The position numbers and the translations under genes are program-made. A model generated the notes under the pieces. The model was given only the letters and a program-made list of their open reading frames with translations. It did not search any database and was not told the origin of the DNA. DNA of 60,300 nucleotides, filler included, from Sphacelaria rigidula (lineage: Eukaryota): assembly GCA_964200075.2 (NCBI GenBank). It is 7 parts of 7 records of this genome, joined end to end, with 100 filler letters (N's around TTAATTAATTAA, not from the genome) between each part and the next. Parts side by side here need not be neighbours in the genome. Positions count along the whole stretch, not along the records: positions 1 to 8,530 come from CAXNAA020010875.1; 6 more parts are not named here. One strand, 5' to 3'. Of this stretch, positions 221-58,400 are shown piece after piece (within the stretch, counting starts at the first letter, position 1; each line of letters opens with the position of its first letter).

Positions 221-259
221 CTCGATGCGGCGGTCCAGGAGAGCCGGTACCAGTTCTCC
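221..259 (-). CDS. Short FMO exon (GELVPALLDRRIE)
   Basis: Acceptor tctacccccag, donor GAG|gtgcat. Continues IDK-G...IEV as in FMOs. Confidence 0.7.
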
Positions 260-3200
260 CTGGGGGTAGACACCACCAAAGTCGCAGATACGTGAGAAGT
301 ATGCGTATGGTTTGTACAGGTATCGTCAAGTATTTTGAAATTCCACACCAGAATACATGAAAAACTATCTTCAAGATATTTTTCACGCCGGTCATGACTT
401 CGACGTGCAGAGCCAAGCAACGTGCTGAAAAACGGGCAGCGCTGTGCTGGTAGTGTACAACGCGTGGCGGCTGCCTCCAAATCAGACGCCAACTCAATAG
501 CAGGAGTGCTATGCACGCAGCCATGTCTTGCCTTGTCGATGCACGGTACTCGCCCGGACGAGCGAGCCTGCCAGGTCTGTCGCAAGCCCTTCGGAAAAGC
601 ACGGTGCCTCCAGTTCTTTCCCCATCTCGCCATGCCAAACGCCACTAAAACACTGTCCACGAATTTCGAGGGCAGGTACTGTATCGACCTGTTGGGGTGT
701 CCGACATATCAGGACAATCACCGCCGTCACAAACACCTCAAACAAGGCAAAGAGCGGATGTGACAACATCACGTGTGTGCATGGCCTTGTGATTTGATTT
801 CACGTCTGCTAGCACTCCTACTGATGTCATGATTTACTACCGGTTCCCGTCAAAATAGCGTAACTTTTCGTCGGCCAATAAACACAACCCAACGGTTGCA
901 CTGACAAATCACAGCGGCGTGCGATCGGACCGCGTCAGAACACGCTGGCGCACCTGGAAACCCACTCCAGCGATAGAGGACCCCACTGTCGCATGATAAT
1001 AGGGGGTGCCGATCGCGTGGATATGTAAACCTTTCCAGCTCCGTACTCCAGCAAGGCTGCCACGTAGGGGTAGGGCATACAAGGGCAATCGTGGGGCCCG
1101 AAGGGAGACTTGGGGTAGGCGGAGGTGGGTATGTATACCCATCTTGCAAAAGATTCAATTCCCGTTCATACTGATGGGGACTGTAAAAAACATGGTGAGG
1201 TACGAGAAATAAAAACGTGGTCGAACGCATGAGGCAAATATCACAAAAAAACGTAAGCATGAGCACTATGACACGGTGTGCATGCTTGTCGCACATCAAC
1301 TGATCTTCGACAGATCCAGGCGTAGTGACACGATTGACATGCCCAAGGCCAGACGAAAAGTGGTACAAGGTATACAAATCACAAGCGGGCGGCAGCCAAG
1401 CGTGTACCTCTTTTTGGACTGACCATTGCGCGGGTACAACACAGCCAACGCTCCCCCCGACGCTGCAAGGTCAGCAGCATTGCAAATAACATGCTTCTTT
1501 ATTAGCTTGTCTATTTTCATGAAAGGCGGAGCGAGTCCCTTTCACCCACCCGCCCACCTCCTGCATTCCTCACCTAGAGCAAGGTCGCAAGCGCTGTTGC
1601 CCATGCCGACGATGCACACTTTCCGACGGGCCAACGCCGATATTCCCGATACCTTGCTGGAGTGGACGACCTCGCCGGAAAACGTGCCCAGGGTGCGTAG
1701 AATGTCCGATGGTACAGCTGGAGAGGCGTTTTTACCCGTTGCTACCACAATATGGGTACACCGTACCACGCTGATCGTGGCAGCACCGCCGGGAACGCTT
1801 GCTCTGTTCTCAACGGTAAGCGCATTGCGAGAAGCAGTCAAAGATACGCCGAAGTAGAGTCAACACACCGATCCACAACTTCTGCAGAACCCGTATCCAA
1901 ACGTGCACCTCCGTCGCAGTTGGTGCAAAAAGTCATCATTTTTTCAAGAGTCGTTGTCATAAGAAGTGCATAATTTTGGACATAATTCACCCACCACTAT
2001 GACAGGAAATGGACTCTTCACGGTGCTGAAGCTCACAGGTGTGAAATAAAAGAATCTCAGCAGCAGTCTCCCGTCGTGAATCTTACACCCTATCCTCACA
2101 GTTGGACCGGAGGAAAATCGAACTCATTTTTTTTTTGTAGCTTTCGGGTTGAAAAATTCGAAAGATGATTTTTTAAACGGTACATTGGATGGAGAGCGCT
2201 GCTGGGTTACTGAGGTTGAGTTCAAACTCACCATACGTGTACCGTACATTCAGTACAATGCAGTACGCCGAGTACAACTCGCTGACAGTTACAAAACGCG
2301 AAGTGCAGTGTATTCATCATTTCATTATGGTGAACAGGACCATAAGTTGTGTGCTTCAAAAAACGTCAGGGTCACCCACATCACAAATATGTGCAAGCGT
2401 CATGGTCGGTCAGCCGTGCTCAGCGGTATACCAGTGACTCACAGTGTCGATAACACACTCCGTACACACAACAGGCGGAAGCTACCGAGGATTTCGCGGT
2501 ACTCTGTACATGAAAAGTTGTAGACAGTACAGTGCCGTAATGTACGGACTGCAAACTGCGCTGTGCGGTGATTCGTACTAAACTGCGCTGGCTGAAGGAT
2601 ATTCTGTGCTGACTATACTGACCGCACAATACGCAAGACAGTAGGGATTAAAGGAATATGTGGAAAAACTCCAAGTTGATCAGCCCAGGGGCCCCGAGGT
2701 CATAGTCATTTTTCGACCCCACAGCACGTGATCGTCATCATTAAATCACACTAGTTGTCTCATGTAGCTCAAGTCTCAAACTGCCATATACATTGTTTAC
2801 CAGGGCGCCCCAACTTTTTTGGTAACTCGTGCGCTGAACGTCGTGGACTAATTCCCATCATTTCAACCTGTGCCAACGCTACAGCTAGGAACCTTCCTGG
2901 CGACATTCATGATATCCTCGCTTCAACATTTTCTCAGATAACGAAAAACACGCACAAGGTCAGCCTGATATCTATTCTCAGCCACTTTTTGCTCGGCCCT
3001 TCGGAACACCACAGCTCCCCCCCCCCTGCCGGAATAACGTGAACACATCTGTGCTGTGCCCCAAAAGCCACATCTGCGGAAGATGGCCGAAATGGTACCC
3101 TCTTGACTGCGGGTCTGAAATATATCCGTTGCACTTTTTTTCGTCCAAGGTAAACCAACCGCAACGGAGGTGCGTGCTCGTGCAGCGTTCGCACTATTTC

Positions 3201-6200
3201 GACGCACTTGGCTTCCTTCCGCAGGAGCACCTTACTCCCCCGTTCAAGCGCTTAGCGCGTGGCATAAGAACTCCGAGTGATGGTGCGACTACAGGCTTGG
3301 GGGTTCGTGTGGGAGCTACTTCGGCAAATACGCGCAACTGATCGACGACTGAGCGACAATGTGACCTAGCAATACCTTCGAATTTGGAGACGTATACCAC
3401 CGTGTACCCGATTGAACGCTCCTTCACCATCCGCATGCTCTTGCTCGGCACTCAAAACCTCGGTGTCCGTTGCGACATCCAGGTCGAAACGTCGGCAGTA
3501 GCCCGTCAAGTATCTGTGGGAACAAATGCCGACGAATCGCGACCCTTGTGGAGTTCACCAGCACAGCAATCATACGCGCAAAGTCTCCACACGAGCAACA
3601 ACCCCTGTGAAAGTTCTGGCTACTCTCAACGTCGGAGATACTCCTATGAGGACAAATGAGCCACTCGCCTGAGAAAATCCGGCGCTGATAGCTCCCCGTC
3701 CCCTCTCTCGCAAAACCCCTCTTTAGGCACAGGCCACCCCGGCAAGCCGCAGTGCTTGTGCCGGGTGGTGATTTTGAGTCCCTCGTACTGTGCTGCCCAC
3801 GAGCCTCCCACGCTGCTAGATCTGCCGAAGGAGGGAAATGTCGTCCGGGATTCGCTTTAAACTGTTGATAGTCGCTAGAGTCCGACAGCTGGTAAAAATA
3901 CAGAACTTCCGGCGACCGAACGTTGACGTCACTAGGTATCGTGTGCGCTTGCGAGGGCTATGACCACGGCAGGAGTGGTTACCACTTGGCGCTGTGCGAT
4001 ATTGAGACACGTGTCGAGACTCGTCGGTACAGGATGTCCATGGCGTTTTCATGGCTCATGGGGGGAAAGGGGCGAAGCCATGAACCTAAAGGTGAATCGG
4101 ATTGTACAGAATAGGTTTACTCGTACACCGGTACGTGATGCGGGAGACCTGCGTGTGTATGGAAATTGTGCAGCAAACTCGGCGTGTGGAATGTTCGTGA
4201 GTGAAATGGAATCGGTAGGCCAAAAAAAGAGAGACACGGGAGAGAAAATGGCGAAGTATCGACGACTAAAGAGTCACATACTTTCAACGGATCGCTGCGA
4301 ATCATCCGTTTTCTTCAATTTTTTTCGAGACTTATGCAACAACAGATCGCGGGAAACAATCGGATACACGAAGACAGAAGATGAGATAGGGCACTTTTGA
4401 AAAGTATTTGATGAACGCTTCGGCTTTTCGAGCAAAAGTGCAGACTTTGCGCCATTTTTTCGCACATTGTTGATATCTTCTCAACGAACCAAACCTCAGA
4501 TCAACGGTGAACAGCAGGATGCGTAGGGAACACTTGTGATAAAAATAATTGCTCTAGCGTCGAGCAATGCCCATTTATTTATCACTTTTACCCTGTGAAA
4601 AGTGTTGAGCATTTCTGAAAAAACAAATCTTGCCCACTGTTGCAACCCTTGCCACAAATTATCGCACAGCTTGACACAGCAAGTAACGCCGAAGTCGTGC
4701 AAAAATCCCGCGATCAAATTTATCGTTCTGGCATCGACTTCATGTCTGTCCGCTATTTTTATACCTGTGGGATACTTTCGATCGCCTGAGGCACAGGTGC
4801 CACACTATTTGATGGGGAAAAGTGCAGTAAACTCCTCTTTTCAACGATTTTACGAGCAAACGGTGGGATATATGATCGTATGGATAAGGGCGCCGCACTT
4901 TTAAGGCTGCAGTTTGAGAATAAATAAACAGTTGTTCCGAGCAATGTCTAACTAGCTGACGCTCCAGTATGCTACTGAAGTAGCCAATTTTCCCGCTGGT
5001 CGAATTTAGACTTCCATCTCGGCCCTCGAGTTTCAAGAATCCTCAGACGTCCGAATCATTCGTATTGTTTCAGACTTTGGACGGAATTGGTTGTGCGTGC
5101 TGGTCCTGTCACCTAGCTTGTCAAATGCCCCGAAAATGCAGACGCCCTATTTTGGGTTGCCTATTTTGATTCATTCACCACAAGCGCAGTACCCACGATG
5201 GAGCCCAAGACGTACATTGTCGGATAGCTATGGATCCCTCACGTTCCAGCGGCCCTAGCAACGTCTTCATCGCGATCATCTGCATCTCGACGTCTGCCTC
5301 TACGTGCATTACTTAAACGCCGGAAGCTGAGAGGGGAGGGGGGCGCACTCAATAGTTGCTTGCCTTAGTTATTTGATCACCAAACACGCATCCCTTTCGA
5401 GATGGAGCACCATTCCTACCCGGAAACTGACTAGGAATCGCTGAAAATTCAATGCTTTTGGAACGAATTGGGTCGTACCTGTAGTATTGAGTAGACCGCC
5501 GCTGGAGTATGACAATGTACAGTAGCACTCACCTCTCGAGGAGTAGCACGTCATGCTCTCCGCGCCTCTTCAAGCAAGCAGCAGCACTCAACCCGCTCGC
5601 GCCGGCACCAACGACCACCACTCGGCAAAACTCCGGAAACGAGGATGGCGCAGGTTGACTAACCGCGTCAGTCACACCACTAGCTTGCTGGTTCTCCGTT
5701 GAGGTGGAGAATGACAGGTTACCGCTGTCGCCCCAAACAGGCAATGGGGGCCACACCGCTGATGAAACGCGTGGGTCCGTGATGCCCGTGGCATCACGGG
5801 ATGGCTGGGTGCGTTTGGGACTGTGGGGGATTGTGAAGCCGCATACCCTGGAAGCTCGGAGGGTGACGTCCATACGCGTCACGTCCACTTTGCCGATCTC
5901 ATGGTGCGTCCAGCCCATGCTGCGGTGCACCACGGCGGCCGCGTGGCAAGCATACACCTTCGCGCCGTAGGATGGGGTAGCGAAGCCGCAATTCAATTGT
6001 ATTGATTGTCATTTTCTCGCCAAATTTCCAAGCACTGTAGATGGGGATAGCTGTGCTTGCAGGCACATAGCACTCTAGTCGCGTTTGCTCAGAAATTCGT
6101 GTGTGGTGGTTGGAGCTGCAGGTGTGACACTTGCGGCTCATCATGATCCCGAATTTGAGCGATATCGTGGAGGTGTAAGCAACACAATGGTCGTAGTGGG

Positions 6201-7467
6201 ATACAGGAAATGAAACGGGCGTTACTGCGCCGCAGCGAGATGTACTTGCGCACGTGTTCAGGAAACTCCACGTGACGAGGCCGTAAAATTTCCTCCATGA
6301 GGGTTTTTAAGGTGCGTTGGTACGTATTGAGGCAGACATTGTAACGAATAGGTTGTGCGTGGGATTTTCACGAGTTGCACTGTACTCAGTACTTGCATGC
6401 TCGCCGCTGTTAATGTGAGTTGATGTCCACGAACATTATCGGCGGCTCCGTGACGTTACCCGGGGTACACTGCAGTATAATACTCTACTCTCCAGTATGA
6501 ATCTCAATCGACGGGTCATGTGCTCCCGTTCTTTTGTTTACTGTAGCTCTGCGAACCTCTACTTTCCATGGCCTGATACTAAAACGTGGCACGGTTCTCC
6601 CGTAGCATCCGTCACTAACATCAAGTTTGTTGCAGAGGAAGGATGTAGGTGTTCATGGACGCGTTGTCAAAAACTCGACGTCCACTTTTGCGCGCACTCT
6701 ACCGCGGCTGAAGGTTGTCGGTTTGGAGTTGTCTACAGGTGAGTAGTTGCACAGGTCTCATCTTACAGCTGTACAAAGTATACTATTACGGCGATGACAA
6801 GTAAACGATCGAAGCATTACATAAAAACGTCAGCCCTTGAATGTACGACCGCTACGTCGGCACAGTAAGCTGCTGTCTGTGCTGGGCAGTATCCACGACG
6901 AGACGAAATTGAACCAGCACACGACGTGTGATCATGCGAGACTTCTCATTAGTTAGTCGCTTGCGTGTGATCGACGCGTGGGGCTACCACTCTATGCGTA
7001 TACACGTACATGCCGTCATACAAACACTCAGTCTAGTAGTTTTCCAGGCCCTCATACTTAGCATGTATACACCGGGAATTTGACAGCTTCCAAAAAGGAC
7101 GTCAACCAATTGAACATATAATCGATATAACCTCCCAATAGCCACCCTCAGGTTCTTTCAACAACCGTTCGGAAAGGAACGTTGACCAACGCCGCAAATG
7201 TCTACTCTCCGACGTGTTCGAAGTTGGTTTGGCACAAGCTAGAAGCAAACCGTCATGTCGCCAAGGTCCCACAACGCACCTATCGGGTCATGTGTATGAC
7301 AACACACCTCATCATGCGGAAGCAACACGTGGAACTGCCGCGGAGTGCAAGCAGTCTCCTCCAACCTCAAAATGCCGCCGCTGGCGACGGTGACGTCGGG
7401 ACGGTATCCCTCGAGCGGACACGGGACGGCGAACACGACGGCTGAAGCATTCAGTGGCAAATGTTGC
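221..7467 (-). CDS. Partial multi-exon gene: WAX2 C-terminal (CER1/CER3-like) domain fused to a class-B flavin-containing monooxygenase (YUCCA-like FMO)
   Basis: Hand-spliced exons 7467-7308, 5957-5533, 3821-3669, 3513-3376, 1803-1574, 1056-954, 688-532 and 259-221 (1405 nt) are all phase-compatible with no stops. WAX2_C-like segment: VFAVPCP...[36 protein letters not shown]...GF. FMO motifs: GAGASG (FAD), ER-SSSVGGSW, VVATG, FSGEVVHSSK, GMGNSA (NADPH), TRS, GRVPCIDKG. No start or stop codon was found; the ends probably lie off the contig. Confidence 0.9.
532..688 (-). CDS. FMO exon (SIQYLPSKFVDSVLVAFGMARWGKNWRHRAFPKGLRQTWQARSSGRVPCIDK)
   Basis: Acceptor acaccccaacag, GC donor AAG|gcaaga. 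Resembles the LP...VD...G...GKTPVLDVG segment of YUCCA-type FMOs. Confidence 0.82.
954..1056 (-). CDS. FMO exon (ALLEYGAGKVYISTRSAPPIIMRQWGPLSLEWVSR)
   Basis: Acceptor ctacgtggcag, donor AG|gtgcgc. Phase 1-2 fits both neighbours; contains the RS NADP(H) 2'-phosphate site. Confidence 0.85.
1574..1803 (-). CDS. FMO exon with ATG motif, FMO signature and NADPH-binding motif
   Basis: ASVPGGAATISVVRCTHIVVATGKNASPAVPSDILRTLGTFSGEVVHSSKVSGISALARRKVCIVGMGNSACDLAL; donor G|gtgagg. Confidence 0.9.
3376..3513 (-). CDS. FMO exon (YLTGYCRRFDLDVATDTEVLSAEQEHADGEGAFNRVHGGIRLQIRR)
   Basis: Acceptor tttgttcccacag, donor AG|gtattg. Has the YLxxYxxxF FMO helix; phase 2-2. Confidence 0.85.
3669..3821 (-). CDS. 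FMO exon (SSSVGGSWAAQYEGLKITTRHKHCGLPGWPVPKEGFCERGDGELSAPDFLR)
   Basis: Acceptor tttccctccttcggcag, GC donor AG|gcgagt. The GGxW..xY..L pattern is typical of FMOs. Not in the ORF track. Confidence 0.88.
5533..5957 (-). CDS. Fusion exon: end of WAX2_C (5957-5826), ~66-aa linker, start of FMO Rossmann fold (from 5627)
   Basis: One uninterrupted frame VYACH...GFTIP-linker-CRVVVVGAGASGLSAAACLKRRGEHDVLLLER. Donor AG|gtgagt. Confidence 0.9.
7308..7467 (-). CDS. Exon of WAX2-FMO gene (WAX2_C domain: QHLPLNASAVVFAVPCPLEGYRPDVTVASGGILRLEETACTPRQFHVLLPHDE)
   Basis: Acceptor ...ttttcccccgtgcacgctgccaccacag, donor GAG|gtgtgt. Joins VYACH in phase 0. An alternative acceptor at 7441 is possible. Confidence 0.8.
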
Positions 7468-8530
7468 CTGTGGTGGCAGCGTGCACGGGGGAAAACGCAA
7501 CCGAGCGGATAACCGACGGCGTGAGAACCGTAAGCAGGATAAGTTACTCTGTGGTGCTCCGCAGTCAACGGGGTCTCGTATCGAACATAATCCGGGGCCG
7601 CGTGGACACACGCCTTGAATCGCCCCGAACCATGGGAGCAGTTGAACAGCTCATTTGAAACGTACGAGTCGCAAGCAAACGCATGCGACCTGTGCTGTCC
7701 AATGAAGTTGATCAACGACACGACTTGATACCTGTCACGTGATCACTGCATCCAGTACCGTTGCACTACAACTGCCAGTTCTAGGTTATTTAATGCCATG
7801 TTGGAGTTTAGGGTTGTTCCTTACTCAGCCTCACGTTCTTCGACACCTACCGAAAAGCAGGACGAAGTCTGTATATTACAGTCGGATCAGACGGAGTCGG
7901 TGATTTCTTGCCCGCGATAATACTATCGCTCCCACCCCTCGCCGACGTCGTTGTTAGCGTAGTACCGTGTTGGAAACAAATATCCCGGCGTTCAGGGCAT
8001 GGAGGGGATGCTAAAGCAGCACCCTCGGGCTAGCCTTTCTTTGGAACGCGTCTCCCGATACCACCCCGCACATAGTTGAAATGCTTGTTGTGCTGATGGT
8101 CATGCACGTTTGTGATATAGTGGTGCCCCCACTTCACGGAGGTGGAAAATCGGCTGAAACTGTTACATCCCTGGGAGATGAGGCCCCATCCACTGCAAGG
8201 TCGAGTGCCATTTGAAGGCAGTCAATTTTCTGCTTGCACTGTACCGCCTTGAATTGGAGCTCCCAATGTATCGTGGTACGGCACTACTGTTGTATATCGG
8301 CATCCGCGTGGCCCATATTTTGCTTGTGGAATGGAGGATCATGGTGGTTACGTAGCTAGCCAGACGAGCCAAGATCGCAAAACTGTCTGGAGAGTGATGC
8401 CGCGATAGCCCCCCCCCCCCACCTCCGTTTCCGCTCCGTTCCGTCTCGAAAGGGATGCGTGGTCAATGGTCAAACGACTAAGGCAAGCAACAAATGAGTA
8501 CGCCCTCCCCCCCCTCCCCCATCATGATAG

Positions 8531-26001: not shown

Positions 26002-29000
26002 TTATATGGCAGCTACTCCGAATACAGTCATGTATGGGCACGGCATCCTGCTGTTCACAGCCAGTCGACATCCGAAAGCTTTCAACTTGTTGAGAGAAAA
26101 CTCGTCAAAGGCATCAAGAACATCTGCGTAGCTGGTATACGGCGCTGCAAACAATAACTGGAAGGAGATACGTAGCGCTTGGTTCGGTGGGCGTTGTGGA
26201 CAGGCACAAGCGGCCGTGCTGGAAGCTGTGTTTACCGTAGTGAGGAGCTGCAGAAAAAGACGGAGATCGGCGATTAATACTACACAAGCCATGAAGCATC
26301 AACTTAAAAATGGTAGCCGTGACGCGCAGAAGACGAAACCTCCACATAGGTCGCGGCTACAAGCTTCCAACACTCAGCTGGAAAAAATACGCACATGGTT
26401 CTTCCACGATACCTGCCCCCCCCAAAGCCAACCCAAAACTGTCACAAGAAAAAGGGCTGTGCAGCCCCCAATATGTTTGGTTTCAGGCTGCATGAAGCGC
26501 CTCATATGGGCGACTTGGGCGAAAACGAACTCAAGCGTGGGAATTCCTAGCTGCTCGTTGTGCTCGGCTTTTTCCAATTCGATCCACGTGTAGATTTCGC
26601 CTCCCGAAACCAGCCACTTTTCAGGGGGGGGGGGGCTATCGTAGAAAGCGTTACATACCTGACTGTCCCTCAGAACTGCTCACATAACTGCCATCATCCG
26701 AGTAACCGTCTCCGTCAGAGAACCCTTTTCCTTCCCCACCGCTCTCTTCGCCCTCCCCGCCGCCATCCCTGTCATCATTGTGGCCGCAGGGGCTATCGGC
26801 GCTCTGAACCCCGGTGTCGTCATCGCGAGGACTAATGGGCACTCCTTCACCACCGTCTTCCTCTCCCTCGTCATCCGCATCCACGTCTTCCGCCAGCTGC
26901 TCCGTCAGTAGAGGGTCGGGAAGTCCGCCCCTACCGTGGCCGTGTAATACTCCGTCATCCGCGACCCCTTCCATGAGGTCGTCCCAGGCGTGCTCGAAAA
27001 CTGCATCGTCGTCTTCTTCCTCCGCTGCCACGCCGAACGCCTCGACGTGAAGACTGTCGCCGTCTCCGGGGAGAGGGGTATCGGTCGCCCCTCTTTTCAC
27101 TCGCATTAACGCGCGGTCGCTACGTTTGCCAACGCCTCTACCCGGTGATGCGAGTTCGCCGTCCCTAAATAACTCGTCTTCCGACGATTCTTCGTCAGCG
27201 TCGGCGCCTGCATCGGAACCCCAGCTGTAGCTGTCGCCACTACTATCACCGCCGCCGCCGGTGAGGTACAGACTACGCTCACCGGGTAAGCCGTCTAGTG
27301 GCTTCACGCCGCCCTGCTCTTCCCCGTCCATGTCTCCTAGCACGAACAAGACAGGGTCACCTTCATCATCATCGCTACCACCACTGCCATCGTCATCATT
27401 GTCGTCATTGTCTTCGTGCTCTGCGTCAAAGTCACCATCAGTTGGTTCTAATACCTCTACTATATCGCCGCCGCCAGCAAAGCCACTATCAGTGGTACCT
27501 TCATCAGCACCCCTCCCTACGGTTTGTGCGCTGCCGTCGTCCACATGCCCCCAGCCTCCCAACTCCTGTGGCCGCCCGGGGCCGGTGACTCTGGCAGGCC
27601 AAGCGTTACCACCCCTGCTCTCGTGCTGGTCAAAAGTCCCAGTTGCAGCGGTGTTACAAGACGGAGAGCCGTGGCGGCCTTCCTCCAGTGTCGTTCTCGG
27701 CTTCGTCTTGTCGCACCAAGGAAGCTTTGTCTCGGTGACCCCACCACTTCCAACAGTGCTCACCCTGGCTAGTGGAATAGGTCCTGCCTCGTTTTGGCGG
27801 GCCCTGTCACCGCCCCGCCCGTCATCAGTAGCGCACCCCGCGTCTTCATTTTTCCGCGCCCGCGCTTGTTGCTCTTCTCCTTCCCGCTGCTGCTGTTGCA
27901 GAAGTACGTACTCTTCCTGGGGAGAACTCGCGGGTAACGGCGCCCCCCGCGCTTCCGCCGAGTTCAGCATACACCTATCGTCGCTCAAGTTGAAACCGTT
28001 CGAAAACACCGCAGGCCGTGGCAACCCGCCACCGCCGCCGCGGTCCACGCGATCGGGTTGGCAGCTGCACGCAACAACATCGCCCACTACTGTGTCAACA
28101 AGACCCGGATAAATGACATCACTTGCAGCGGTACCACTACTGCCAACAAAGGGAACAACCTCGTCGGCTACGGCCTTGACGTGCTCCTCGATGATGACGG
28201 CGTGTCCGAAGGGCGCGGCAACTTCGTCTTCCTCCTCCGATTGCGTCGGCGGACCGATGACTACGCCCGCAACCGCGCCCGCCGGGCCAGGCGGGGGAGC
28301 GGCGGCGGCGACTCCCCCACTCTCTCCGCGCGGAGGGCAAGCGCCGACGGCGGGGTCTTCGAGGAGAGCGGGGTCGGCGGCGACCACGGCGGCCGCTTGA
28401 GTGCCTCCCACGTCCTGCTTGTCTAGTGAGGAAAGTGGAGACAGAGACATACCAGCAGCGGCGCCGCTGACGTTGTCGCAAGATGACGGGGCGGTGGTTG
28501 CTTCCCCTGTAGGAGATGATACTTCCATGTTGTCATCGTCGCATCGCACGGGGTCCTCATCATCACTCTCTACTAAACGGGGTGCGGCGGCGGTCGGTGT
28601 AGGTACAGCAGAAGCAACAGTCGAGATCGACTCTTGTGTGCTGTCATCATCTGCGGCTGTGACCATGTAGCTCTCGTCCAGAATTGCGTCCGCCATTGCG
28701 TCTGTGTCGAATCCGCCTATGTACGCGATAAGTACGGGATAAGTACGGGACAAGACCCGGAGTCAAGTCATTCGACAGTCACAGACGAAGCCCGAAGACA
28801 TGTTCAACTCGGCGAAACAAAGAGATGGGCAATTGCCGCTTTTTCTTAGCTAGTTGCTGTTGGTTACAATAACGACGTACTGGCCTATTATTGTTATTAT
28901 GAGGCTGAGGGTCAGCCGTAAAGTTTGCTATAATCGCGACTTTACTCAAAATGGATTACCTGGTTGTTGCTGTTCCGTTTGCTGATTTCCGTTGGCTGCC

Positions 29001-44039: not shown

Positions 44040-45350
44040 TTATTGCGAGTCGAAGGGAATCCTCCCAGTGGCACAATTCAGTTTCCGCCCTGGCCGGTCT
44101 ACAGTCGACACATAATGTTCCTTATGCACAGGCTCCAAGAACTGACCAGAGAGAAGAATCTTCCTCTGTACATGTGCTTCATCGACTTCCAATAGTCATG
44201 CGACTCAGTGGACCGCTCTCTTCTCTGCAAAGTTCTAGCACGCTACGGTATCCCCGCCAAGGTAATTTCCGTCATCCGCCGATTCCACGACGGCATGTGG
44301 GCATGCGTACGCCTGGACAGCGGCGAGACGTTCGAGTGGTTTAACGTTAACCAGGGCCTCGGCCAAGGGTGTGTGCTTTCCCCGGTCTGTTCAACATCTT
44401 TTTCGCGGCGGTGCTGACGGTAACGTTCGACCGCTTCTCGATAAAAAAAGTGGTGGTGCAAGACTTCATCCGCATCGCTGAAAGGGGCGGGGAGACCAGG
44501 GACGAACTCAGCAAAGTGCTCTGGGCTATGCTATACGCCGACAACGCTGGCATCGCTTCGCGTTCCCGGGAAAGCCTGGCAAAAATGATCACAGCCGTCG
44601 TCGAAGTACATGCAGCATTTGGTCTCGTCGTCGCGGAAAAGAAGACGGTCACCATGCACATGCGCTCCCCGAACATGGAGACGGATACGATCGAGGTGGA
44701 GGCAGCGGCTCAAAGATACAAACAAATTGAGTCGTTCCTTTACCTTGGCGGAAAAATCAGCAGCATCGGGGATGTCACCCCAGAGATCCACAGCCGAAAA
44801 TTGGCCAGGCCTGGACGTGCTTCTACAAGTACAGCAAAGCGATATACGGCAACCCGTACATCGCCCTCGACACCAAGGTTCGTCTCCTGAAAACTGAAGT
44901 GATCGAGGTAATGCTGTACGGCTGCGTGACCTGGACGGCCGCACACGACAATTTTTGTGCCTCAACAAGCATACCTCAAGCCGCAGCGCCCCTGTCTACC
45001 ACATGCTGCCGTACCACGCGGTTCTCGAACAAACTAGATGCGAGTGCATTGAAGCCACAGTGATGGAGCGAGCCCTCCTACATGCCGGCCGCGTTGTGCG
45101 CATGCACGATGGATGCCTCCCCAACATCGTCATGCGTAGAGTCATATTTGGGAGCAAGACGAGGGCAGGCCGACGAGCAAGGCACCTACAACACTGTATC
45201 ACGGACTACTGCTCGTACTTCGGGATAAATGCGAAATCGTAGACGCAGGCTGCCCAAGATTTGTCTGAATGGTCCCGAGCGTTAGAGGACGGGATTAACA
45301 TGTACATGGCAGCCTGGACGAAAGCACGCCACGCTGAGGAACTTTTTGCT
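44040..45350 (+). mobile_element. Decayed non-LTR retrotransposon (RTE-like LINE), reverse transcriptase region
   Basis: LYMCFIDFQ*..DSVDR, YGIP, QGLGQGCVLSP.LFNIFF, MLYADN, FLYLGG, MLYGCVTW. Contains stops and frameshifts. Confidence 0.92.
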
Positions 45351-55466: not shown

Positions 55467-58400
55467 TTACGTTTCTGGAGCTCCAAACAACGCCATCATC
55501 TCCTCTTCGAGATCCTGCGCTTGGTCCAATTGCCCTTCCGCGCGGCAAGCCGCCACGGCACCATTGTAACTCTTTTCACTCGGCGCCAGCCCAGCCACCG
55601 ACGTCTCCCTCAAAAGTCCCACTGCCTCTTCCCATTTACCACATTTTCCGCACCCTGTTATTGCCGAAGCGTAGCTTTGTGCATCCGGGGCAATCCCCAC
55701 CGTCTTCATCTCCCTCAATAAAGTCATGGCTTGTCTCCACTCGCCACTAAACTCGCACGCTGCAATAGCAGAATTGTAACTAGTCAGATCCGGCGCGATG
55801 CCAACCACGGCCGGTGTCTCATCGCTCCTCTTACTATCGTCATCATTTTCAACCGCTGCTATAACCGAGTGGTAACTACTCATATTCGGCGTGCCACCCG
55901 CGGCGGAAATTTGTCTCAGCACGACCAGGGCTTGCTTCCACTGACCACCCTTCGCACACCCTGCGATGGCCGCATTGTAGCTGGTCAGATCAGGGATAAC
56001 CCCAACCGTCTGCATCTTTTCTAGCAACGCAAGCCCCTCCTGACATGCACCGCCATTTCCGCACGCCGCGATAGCCGCGTTGTAGCAGATCACATCCGGT
56101 GCCACCCCTGCCGCTTCCATTTCCACTAACAACGCCAACGCCCGTTCCCACTCGCCGCCATTTCCGCACGCGGTAATGGCCGCGGAGTACGAATACGCGT
56201 CCCCAGAGCATCCTGCGGCTGACATTTCCGACAAGAGAGCAACGGCCTGTTCCCATGCACCATCGGTGGCACACGCCGCGATAGCCGCATTGTACGTGAC
56301 TGTATCAGGACTTACTCCAGCGGATGGCATACCCCTCAGCAGAGTCAATGCTTCGTTCCATCTTCCGACTTTAGCCAACGCTGAAATCGCCGTGGCGTAG
56401 ACGTGAACGTTTGGGACGACACCTGCGGTTAGTAGCTCCTCCAAAAGGGCCAACCCCTCCTTCCACTCACCAGCGTCCCCGCAGGCCGTGATAGCCGAGG
56501 AGTAGGTATATATGTCGGGAGCGATTCCCGACTTTTGCATCTCCCTCAACAGTGACACTGCCTCCCTCCATTGACCACCATTCCCGCACGCCACGATGGC
56601 CGAATTGTAGCAAATCGCATCCGGCATGATATTCGCTCCCGGCATCTCTCGCAACAAATCCACTGCCTGCTGCCACGCCCCGGACTTCGCGCACGCGGAA
56701 ATCGTAGCCCCGTAGATGAAGATGTTCGGGGCGATCTTGAGAGTGTCCATCTCTCGTAACAACGCCAGGGCGTGCTCCCACTGACCAGCCCTGCCTACAG
56801 CTTCAATGCATTCCCTGTAGCACACATCATCCGGGTTTGTGCCCGCCGCAGGCATCTCTCGCAGCAGAGCTAACGCCTGCTCCCACTCTCCAGCATTCGC
56901 GCAGGCCTTGATTGCAGCACTCATGCAAAATACATCAGGTTGCACTCCGTCGGCCCGCATTTTATCCAAAATACTTCGAGCCTCTTGCACTTTACCGGCG
57001 CGCCCGCAGGCTGCTATGGCCATCGCATAGCATACGATATCAGGGGGTAAGCCAGTCGTCGATACCTCCTCCAAAAGATCCAGTGCTTCAGCCCACCTGC
57101 CACACTTTCCACAAGCCGTAATGGCCGCCCTATAAGATGCAATGTCCTTGAAAATTGCCATCTGGTCCATTTCCTTCAACAGGGCCAATGCCTGCTCCCA
57201 TTGAGAAGCTCGCCAACAGACTGTAAGGGCAGCATTATAGCTCACCACGTTCGGAGCGATGCCCACTTCTGGCATTTTTCTCAACAGATCCATGGCCTGC
57301 TGCCACTCATGGGCAAGGCCACAAGCCGTAATGACTGTAGTGTACGATACAACGTTCGGCTTGGCGCCGGATTCTGATATGCCCCTCAACATCTCCAAAG
57401 CCTCTTTCCACTCACCCGCCTGGGCGTGGGCGTTTAGCGCAGCATTCCAGCAATATACGTTCGGTTTGATCCCGGCAAGCTTCATCCTGTCCAGAATACC
57501 TATGGCGTCTTGCACTCGGCCACACTTTCCCAACTGGCGGATGCAGCTGCCGTACATGTACAATGTCACGACCGGAATCGTGCCACCACCAGCCGCTCGC
57601 CCTGCAGTCCGAACGGTGACCCACAGGGAATTGGTTTAAAAATTAAGTCGAGAGGGGAAAAGAGCAGATATTCATGGCAATCCTTACCCCGTACATTTGA
57701 AAAAGCCTCTGCATTCACGGTTCATTGGCGAAGAGATGGGTGGACGAATTCCGCGACAATTTCACACCTGACCACGGCTGTCATCCTGTTGACTATGCTG
57801 ATACGTAATGCACACAAAAATTGATAGTTCTACGAGTTGGGCCGGCCATCAGTGATTTTTTAACGCAGAGTGGAGATGCTATTGGCATTTCGAAGAGTTG
57901 GATGCTGAAATTTTGACACGACATTTCTATTATCAATCCGCGCAACCCCGTGAGGGGTGCCACGGGGGAAAAAAAAAAAGGGAATTAGAGCGGGTTGAGG
58001 TTTCAGCAAAAATAGGGAAAATGCATGAACTTCATCAAAAATTGGTTAAAACGATGACAACGCTACGGCACATACGGGTACTCGCGTCAACCACATCCTT
58101 GTAAAGTTTCAGCTGGAAATACGTAAAATTGAGCTTAGAGTCGCACTTTTTGTGTGACCCCGGTGGTCAAACTGATACAACAGCCTTAAATGATACAGGT
58201 CACGAGTTCGAATCCCGACACGACAACAACTTTTTTGTGCACACTAATCGTGCATAATTTCTCGTACCTCTGGGTTGCAAAGGGTCTCGATATTTTGGTG
58301 ACGGTCTTGCTTTGGGGGGGGGGGGATGACGCAGTTTTAAGTAGTACTTCTCTCTCGTGCGGTGATACACGACAGTTGGCTCGGAGGTTCTCTCCCATTA

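Follow-up and report, generated by a model that had tools for sequence, protein, structure and literature searches.

The window analysed here, a 60.3-kb stretch of DNA from the brown alga Sphacelaria rigidula, comprised seven contigs of ~8530 nt each, with spacers of the form N44-TTAATTAATTAA-N44 between them. The minus strand of contig 1 (1-8530) carried a gene in which a reductase domain of the WAX2 and cyanobacterial acyl-acyl carrier protein (ACP) reductase (AAR) type was fused in frame to a predicted class B flavin monooxygenase (FMO). The fusion point lay within a single exon (5957-5533), one frame of which ran from the end of the AAR/WAX2-type domain through a 69-aa linker into the flavin adenine dinucleotide (FAD)-binding start of the FMO. 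The surrounding open frame (6008-5532; 159 aa) contained a reductase-type motif (…HHEIGKVDV), a low-complexity stretch, and then CRVVVVGAGASG with the FAD-binding GxGxxG. It is practically certain that this is a real fusion of two enzymes in an expressed brown-alga gene.

Eight exons of the gene were present on contig 1, with joints placed at splice signals: 7467-7308 (160 nt), 5957-5533 (425 nt), 3821-3669 (153 nt), 3513-3376 (138 nt), 1803-1574 (230 nt), 1056-954 (103 nt), 688-532 (157 nt) and 259-166 (94 nt). The first exon on the contig, bounded by an AG acceptor and a GT donor, encoded a middle-to-late part of the reductase unit (..AVVFAVPCPLEG..RQFHVLLPHDE) and matched by tblastn residues 259-311 of P0006, a fused protein of Nemacystus decipiens (1009 aa). 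The second, the junction exon, was defined by its open frame, Pfam matches and RNA-like contigs. It held a conserved Cys codon in a YACHA motif (5946-5948), which aligned with the catalytic Cys294 of cyanobacterial AAR, then the linker (5628-5834), which was Ser/Pro/Thr-rich, poorly conserved and of varying length among relatives, and then the FAD-binding GxGxxG motif as GAGASG (5592-5609), with matches of Pfam NAD_binding_8 and DAO on the exon. All six remaining exons encoded FMO. The third was delimited by RNA-like joints and tblastn to P0006 residues 596-633, the fifth by RNA-like joints and a Pfam FMO-like match, and the fourth, sixth and seventh by RNA-like joints, splice signals and tblastn to P0006. 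Within the fifth exon lay VVATGKNA (1748-1725), the FxGxxxH motif as FSGEVVHSSKV (1682-1650) and the NAD(P)H-binding GMGNSA (1607-1590).

Transcript evidence came from four sequencing runs (X1-X4), all of one study, which were not recorded as RNA and whose RNA nature was guessed; they were taken as RNA because their contigs skip introns. Each of the four runs had one spliced contig (2.9-4.7 kb) over the fusion gene, and every exon joint was reported in all four. By run, the contigs aligned as all eight exon pieces (X3), seven listed pieces (X4), six (X1) and five (X2). Positions 5533-5953 were covered without gap or joint in 4 of 4 runs, and no joint, insertion or deletion was found in the junction exon in the contigs of these runs; X1 to X3 had zero differences from the genome letters there, and X4 had four single-letter differences. 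Over the last exon, the X3 contig covered 165-258 and extended 26 nt more. The spliced contigs gave intron ends of GT..AG in five of the seven introns and of GC..AG in two (3668-3514 and 531-260; the latter requires the joint to be placed one base to the right). The spliced frame of the eight exons had 486 codons and zero stops. Its product aligned to residues 273-769 of the full-length relative P0018 (874 aa) in one block (35% identity, E 1e-82), so that homology spans the junction, whereas its match to P0006 fell into two blocks, of 68 and 56% identity, on either side of the variable linker. The reductase and the FMO are transcribed as one message.

The contigs from the runs extended ~1.56 kb upstream of position 7470, and those of X3 and X4 also past position 165; as they run beyond both sides, the gene is cut by both contig ends. 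Correspondingly, in tblastn with three full-length relatives, residues 1-258 of P0006 had no match anywhere in the window, and residues 919-1009 were also unmatched there. The reductase exons upstream of 7467 were not on the contig, and ~90 C-terminal FMO residues, including the second ATG motif, lay beyond its end. The ~1.56 kb of upstream message could accommodate the 260 aa that the reductase unit lacks here. A public partial model of the gene (P0011; 384 aa), recorded under Sphacelaria rigidula, matched part of the junction exon at 100% identity, retained intron sequence, and had 89% identity to the RNA-supported product over 383 columns; because it begins inside the junction exon, the public gene model lacks the reductase half. 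Rfam gave no match on contig 1 at E ≤0.01 and none in the whole window at the gathering score.

These results agreed in most respects with a first-pass annotation made from the DNA letters. The exons it had placed at 7467-7308 and 5957-5533 were exact, their joints recurring in all four runs, and the six additional exons that it had counted were borne out by the spliced contigs. It had argued that the junction is intra-exonic; the frame was indeed open and was transcribed without joint or indel, and the spliced contigs, the kind of evidence it had proposed to look for over 5957-5533 and the exon junctions, joined all exons and never split within the linker. Its measurements needed adjustment: the spliced product on the contig was 486 aa and not 468, the end of the last exon was placed by RNA-like contigs at 166 and not at 221, and the linker was 69 aa long and not 66.

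An inverted repeat of 74 nt (82% complementary) was also observed on contig 1, with one arm (5333-5406) inside the intron that follows the junction exon and the other (8440-8513) close to the end of the contig. Summed depth of the RNA-like contigs at the two places was in the hundreds (~5131-5415) and above 100,000 (8266-8530), with many loose ends, and the repeat had no Rfam match. These features suggest a dispersed repeat with strong transcription.

For the reductase half, Pfam matched the open frame of the junction exon to positions 123-162 of the 164-position CER1-like_C profile (PF12076). The score of 27.4 bits (E 3.4e-6) fell just short of the 28.3-bit cut-off, since this exon encodes no more than the final quarter of the domain. 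The same domain scored 54.6 bits in P0006 (whole profile), 46.7 in P0018 and 42.4 in P0004 (Pfam), so the Wax2_C match anticipated in the first-pass annotation fell below the cut-off for the exon alone and stood above it for these orthologues. A hidden Markov model (HMM) built from stand-alone relatives gave 84 bits with the spliced window protein (HMM positions 249-354). The window carried the last ~105 residues of the reductase unit, which measured ~350-390 aa in full-length relatives as against 164 aa for the Pfam domain. This unit was found in four arrangements: stand-alone (350-390 aa), behind FA_hydroxylase (CER1/3 type), behind MMPL, and before FMO.

Stand-alone members had weak matches to the NCBIfam models for acyl-ACP reductase (TIGR04058) and PigE (NF053554). 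A profile of 14 stand-alone relatives matched AAR (6jzq) with an E of 1.9e-14 over chain residues 70-335, and PigE (4ppm) with an E of 4.8e-9. In the profile alignment, the Cys that was invariant in the family aligned to Cys294 of 6jzq; it was present in 14 of 14 stand-alone relatives and was kept in the window and in all six other proteins checked. The window retained 9 of the 9 family-conserved columns falling in its part, the Cys among them. The NAD(P)H-binding Rossmann segment (G-x-T/S-S-K-x-G) was present in P0006, P0018, P0025, P0039 and P0027. A sequence search of the PDB with P0018 alone returned FMO chains only, and for this reason the link to AAR needed the family profile; NCBIfam models gave just sub-threshold FMO and short-chain dehydrogenase/reductase (SDR) matches on the fused proteins. 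In an AlphaFold model of P0018 (39-row alignment; pLDDT 83.1, pTM 0.85), residues 5-393 were matched by AAR 6jzq_A more closely than by any other of 48,161 chains (313 of 340 residues aligned; Z 31.0, rmsd 3.4). Membership of the first segment in the WAX2/CER1-like_C family, related to cyanobacterial acyl-ACP reductase, was thereby supported by Pfam scores above the cut-off in orthologues, by the family profile and by the model, as initially proposed. In full-length relatives, the reductase half is a complete AAR-like thioester reductase unit.

For the FMO half, Pfam found FAD Rossmann families on the junction exon (NAD_binding_8, 27.7 bits) and FMO-like on the open reading frame (ORF) of a downstream exon (1545-1859; 30 bits, cut-off 22). 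FMO-like also matched P0006 (52.4 bits), and Pyr_redox_3 was matched in fusion relatives or window exons. The motifs GAGASG, VVATGKNA, FSGEVVHSSKV and GMGNSA followed one another in the expected order. In FSGEVVHSSKV, the first seven positions fit the FMO-identifying motif, which we take to be FxGxxxHxxx[Y/F]; the last residue was V, not Y or F. Residues 416-870 of the P0018 model matched a Stenotrophomonas FMO (4a9w_A; Z 29.8, rmsd 2.9, 321 of 330 residues), and the model also matched DiatB (8z12; Z 29.4, Foldseek E 1.4e-21); these two were the closest solved structures. Among stand-alone sequences of full length, the nearest were bacterial, of ~370-400 aa, at 27-30% identity. By both dinucleotide-binding motifs and the Pfam FMO-like match, the second segment is predicted to be a class B FMO, in agreement with the first-pass annotation, which had relied on motifs in their expected order. 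The 'YUCCA-like' label of that annotation is putative, its one link being automatic IMG names on cluster members and bacterial relatives. In a complex prediction for the two halves of P0018 the score was 0.28 against a mark of 0.34, which is evidence neither way on their contact. The polypeptide is thus laid out as an AAR/WAX2-type reductase, a disordered linker, and a short class B FMO akin to the Stenotrophomonas FMO.

Searching with the junction exon matched 22 longer proteins. Fused forms were found in Ectocarpus sp. 4 (P0004; 1084 aa), Ectocarpus fasciculatus (P0007) and Nemacystus decipiens (P0006). P0018 was also fused; its cluster had the IMG name 'indole-3-pyruvate monooxygenase', and its closest named relatives were cryptophytes. 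When 1.84 billion representatives were searched exhaustively by phmmer with P0018 as query, 1624 matched at E ≤0.001. Cluster look-ups showed fused forms in Symbiodinium, named 'CER3' or 'Protein ECERIFERUM 3', in Thalassiosira pseudonana (XP_002292151; 1343 aa), named 'FAD/NAD(P)-binding domain-containing protein', and in Mallomonas annulata, and the fusion also occurred in cryptophyte-like metagenome sequences. Between the HMM matches of reductase and FMO lay from ~12 aa (P0025 and P0039) to ~270 aa (P0004); the fusion was kept across distant algal lineages, while the linker varied.

Phylogenetic trees were built for each half, leaving out near-duplicate cluster members and rows with fewer than 270 (reductase) or 230 (FMO) HMM positions. 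The reductase tree had 46 units (quick IQ-TREE, SH-aLRT support; midpoint root for drawing only) and placed 10 of 10 fused units opposite 10 of 10 FA_hydroxylase-bearing units across a split with 99% support. The side of the fused units also held seven rows with other N-terminal parts and three short rows, some of which are likely fragments. On the same side was P0046 (890 aa; 55-member cluster), in which an MMPL transporter domain preceded the AAR/WAX2-type unit. The FMO tree (FastTree; 124 FMO domains, 101 of them stand-alone) placed 16 of 16 fused domains, including that of the window, in one 19-row set with a support of 97; of the 101 stand-alone rows, 98 fell outside it. The three 'alone' rows in that set were short, and one of them (P0180) was a member of the Symbiodinium fusion cluster. 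Taken as sequence phylogenies, the two trees indicate that the fusion has one origin and that it was not derived from CER1/CER3.

The first-pass annotation had known of no described WAX2-FMO fusion. This held for the searchable literature: no description of an AAR/WAX2-FMO fusion was found in open publications, a scope outside which lie supplements and subscription papers such as those on CER1/3 phylogenomics. A 2026 review of CER3 evolution describes bacterial and archaeal proteins with WAX2 only and, in cryptophytes and diatoms, CER1/3-like proteins of two domains; an FMO fusion is not mentioned in its available portion (PMC13510223). The claim did not hold for databases, where records of Ectocarpus, Nemacystus, Symbiodinium, Thalassiosira pseudonana and Mallomonas mean that the architecture is already on record, under automatic and partly misleading names. 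The Sphacelaria gene adds a member to a family that is visible in databases although uncharacterised.

A hydrophobic N-terminal module of ~200 aa preceded the reductase unit in Thalassiosira, Mallomonas, the cryptophyte Baffinella, Symbiodinium (partial) and other relatives. It was located at residues 88-299 of P0039, 5-202 of P0027, 1-197 of P0026, 2-200 of P0062, 6-206 of P0041, 131-287 of P0024 and 139-326 of P0053, and in two copies in P0313. Its conserved positions included HExWxxLQHxN, YWxRE, YHxxK, FDTxxH and WxxHA, with invariant His, Asp and Glu. A reductase unit was found in all 17 module carriers (16 by Pfam or the HMM built here, P0093 by phmmer), and at least 8 of the 17 also had FMO or its start. 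The module was undetected in the brown-alga proteins P0004 and P0006, and in P0018, P0023, P0025 and P0044. In four carriers it had no Pfam match at E ≤10 save a stray DUF7475 (E 0.074; P0062 residues 22-70); it had no usable match in the protein atlas, and no Foldseek match at E ≤0.001. Its model was a helical bundle of high confidence (pLDDT 85-97 for most of residues 1-150), for which a wide VIA-align search gave a best helical match of Z 6.1, with 8fhc at Z 5.4, AurF (2jcd) at Z 5.0 and CmlI (5hyh) at Z 4.7; these di-iron bundle Z values are in the range common for helical bundles and are a lead only. A speculative proposal, which we consider rather doubtful, is that in algae with secondary plastids the protein would be a one-polypeptide flavin counterpart of AAR-ADO and CER3-CER1 that turns an acyl-thioester, via aldehyde and formate ester, into formate and a C(n-1) alcohol or a related oxygenated lipid and from which the aldehyde is not released; in diatoms, synurophytes, cryptophytes and dinoflagellates, the module may be a new metal-dependent lipid-modifying domain in place of the hydroxylase-like domain of plant CER1.

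Compared with the cyanobacterial AAR (6jzq/6jzu)-ADO system, the fusion had, in the model of P0018, the same fold over the whole reductase unit, and a conserved Cys aligned with the catalytic Cys294, and would share the pairing of an aldehyde maker with an O2-using consumer; sequence identity between the P0018 reductase and AAR was only ~19%. In the fusion, unlike AAR-ADO, the partner was covalently attached and was a flavoprotein rather than a di-iron enzyme, and the expected product would be an oxygenated or shortened alcohol or ester, not an alkane. Plant and green-alga CER1/CER3 had Pfam CER1-like_C and the YACHA...HEVG motif region in common with the fusion; however, in CER1/CER3 the domain ends the protein (P0084: 461-632 of 653), whereas in the fusion the FMO comes after it, and CER1/CER3 stood on a separate branch of the reductase tree. 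FA_hydroxylase (PF04116) was absent from P0004, P0006 and P0018 (Pfam E ≤0.01) and from P0023, P0025, P0026, P0027 and P0039 (E ≤1e-4), and was found by Pfam in the CER1/3-type proteins P0083, P0084 and P0123. Membership of the fused proteins in CER1/CER3 was rejected, as the eight scanned had no FA_hydroxylase and the 10 fused units in the tree were placed outside the CER1/3 branch.

PigE (4ppm) of prodigiosin synthesis resembled the algal fusion in having an N-terminal AAR-like thioester reductase fused to an aldehyde consumer; its partner is a pyridoxal phosphate (PLP) aminotransferase, not a flavin monooxygenase, and PigE is bacterial and belongs to secondary metabolism. The fused FMO had in common with short class B FMOs (4a9w, DiatB 8z12 and bacterial 'CzcO/indole-3-pyruvate monooxygenase') the fold, and fused FMOs shared with them both dinucleotide motifs and the ATG motifs; it differed from them by its 27-30% identity, by forming its own branch, and by a non-aromatic last residue in FxGxxxHxxx[Y/F]. 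Plant YUCCA was likened to it by automatic annotation only. The fusion is a variant of the known design of an AAR-like reductase plus an aldehyde consumer.

From the gene structure, the single message, the domains, the Cys and cofactor motifs and the conservation of the fusion, all observed, we infer what the substrate and product are and how the steps follow one another. The reductase would transfer the acyl group from an acyl-ACP or acyl-CoA thioester to the conserved Cys, and NAD(P)H would reduce the acyl-enzyme, yielding a free aldehyde, as in AAR. The tethered FMO, with NAD(P)H and O2, would form a C4a-peroxyflavin that attacks the aldehyde carbonyl. The most economical outcome would be a Baeyer-Villiger-type insertion giving a formate ester, the hydrolysis of which would yield formate and an alcohol one carbon shorter. 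The enzyme could be viewed as a flavin-based analogue of the AAR-ADO and CER3-CER1 pairs, and may shorten or oxidise fatty chains.

This route is favoured because AAR-type units feed aldehyde consumers, because re-oxidation of the aldehyde would be futile, and because a peroxyflavin together with a carbonyl gives such products. To our knowledge, there are three characterised AAR-like contexts (ADO, CER1 and the PigE aminotransferase), and in each the partner consumes the aldehyde carbonyl. Attack of a class B FMO peroxyflavin on a carbonyl leads to Baeyer-Villiger products. For AAR, two sources describe a ping-pong mechanism via a Cys294 acyl-enzyme, with the aldehyde handed to the next enzyme, an oxidase (PMC8341465; bioRxiv 10.1101/2024.10.28.620694), and the former also describes PigE as an AAR-like reductase fused to an aldehyde-consuming aminotransferase, for which a bifunctional mechanism was proposed (PMC8341465). 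CER1 is described as the aldehyde-consuming partner of an AAR-like unit (PMC13326499). YUCCA10 is reported to deformylate formyl groups in Baeyer-Villiger fashion by way of a formate ester, and fungal FMOs are cited as doing likewise to aliphatic aldehydes (PMC12930011).

Reading the protein as a reductase followed by an oxygenase, as did the first-pass annotation, is the most reasonable choice; the roles in hydrocarbons, surface lipids or signals that it also suggested would be hypothetical. The complete statement, a two-enzyme polypeptide with a Baeyer-Villiger-type route, is judged slightly more probable than its opposite; the route taken by itself, from acyl-thioester to aldehyde, alkyl formate, and C(n-1) alcohol plus formate, would have a chance approaching even. 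Several points weigh against it. All RNA-like evidence came from a single study and its status as RNA was guessed. The window lacked the NAD(P)H-binding part of the reductase and the FMO C-terminus, so completeness rests on the RNA-like contigs. Among 14 fused proteins, seven had the FMO-identifying pattern with V, A, T or I as its last residue, and the other seven did not match the pattern. Class B FMOs oxygenate N and S atoms too, and the aldehyde need therefore not be the atom attacked.

Some of these points favour a coupling of the two halves in other chemistry, with oxygenation of a heteroatom (N or S) or of another carbon on a thioester- or carrier-bound substrate, or with oxidation of the aldehyde to the acid. 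The structures matched by the P0018 model include N- and S-oxygenating FMOs and the polyketide-synthase Ox-ACP didomain LbmA (8odw), which acts on a carrier-bound amine, and the FxGxxxH motif ends atypically. Such chemistry nevertheless seems unlikely: an aldehyde re-oxidised to acid would make the protein a futile and costly thioesterase, and the partners in the ADO, CER1 and PigE contexts all use the aldehyde carbonyl. Still less probable is a non-fatty substrate, with the reductase half acting on a 2-oxoacyl or aminoacyl thioester or in a redox-neutral NAD-dependent reaction, as proposed for terminal amidation domains, and the FMO in a YUCCA-type oxidative decarboxylation. The carmabin terminal amidation domain (9e4s_A) did match the P0018 model with a Z of 27.8, and IMG automatically named members 'indole-3-pyruvate monooxygenase'; however, AAR was the better match by structure (Z 31.0 vs 27.8) and by profile (E 1.9e-14), the amidation domain was absent from the best 60 sequence matches listed for the reductase profile, and the nearest reductase relatives were the WAX2-type domains found in CER1/3-like proteins, a group linked to fatty acyl metabolism.

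In its fuller version, the first-pass annotation had considered a CER1/CER3-type enzyme of three modules, possibly contributing to hydrocarbons, with an upstream His-rich fatty-acid-hydroxylase domain. The Pfam name CER1-like_C and the third, N-terminal membrane module of several relatives outside brown algae are compatible with that origin, but the module had no Pfam match at E ≤10, FA_hydroxylase included, in the four carriers scanned, and went undetected in the brown-alga proteins P0004 and P0006. With FA_hydroxylase lacking in eight fused relatives, and with fused and FA_hydroxylase-bearing reductase units on opposite sides of the 99% split, this origin is very improbable and that part of the annotation was abandoned. 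That the gene is an artefact, through misassembly, a merged gene model or decay to a dead pseudogene, is hardly credible. The contig is short, and the public model P0011 is partial and unlike the RNA-supported splicing; against this, the junction lay within one exon that spliced contigs covered in 4 of 4 runs without indels, the frame was open across eight exons, and the same junction occurred in at least five other lineages. The two-enzyme fusion with Baeyer-Villiger-type chemistry is the reading that we consider most likely.

Three other features were observed elsewhere in the window. Contig 7 contained an uninterrupted 722-aa ORF for a pentatricopeptide-repeat protein (55470-57635, minus strand; PPR_2 417 bits, 15 stretches). 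Contig 4 contained a 703-aa open frame (26654-28762, minus strand) with an Ala/Asp/Ser-rich start and no Pfam match at E ≤0.001. Contig 6 contained a weak reverse-transcriptase fragment (44351-44887, plus strand; RVT_1 20.9 bits, under the cut-off), probably of a decayed retroelement.

Known routes from acyl groups to hydrocarbons or shortened products combine a reductase that forms the aldehyde with a metal oxygenase (ADO, CER1 or insect CYP4G), or rely on a photoenzyme. The conserved AAR-FMO fusion, which occurs in brown algae and diatoms as well as in dinoflagellates, synurophytes and cryptophyte-like organisms, points to a different, testable chemistry for the disposal of fatty aldehydes. 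The database names 'CER3' and 'indole-3-pyruvate monooxygenase' are misleading for these proteins, and the finding corrects both. If the proposed route is true, the family would provide a self-contained enzyme from acyl to (n-1) alcohol and formate, which would be of interest to lipid biochemistry and biofuels.

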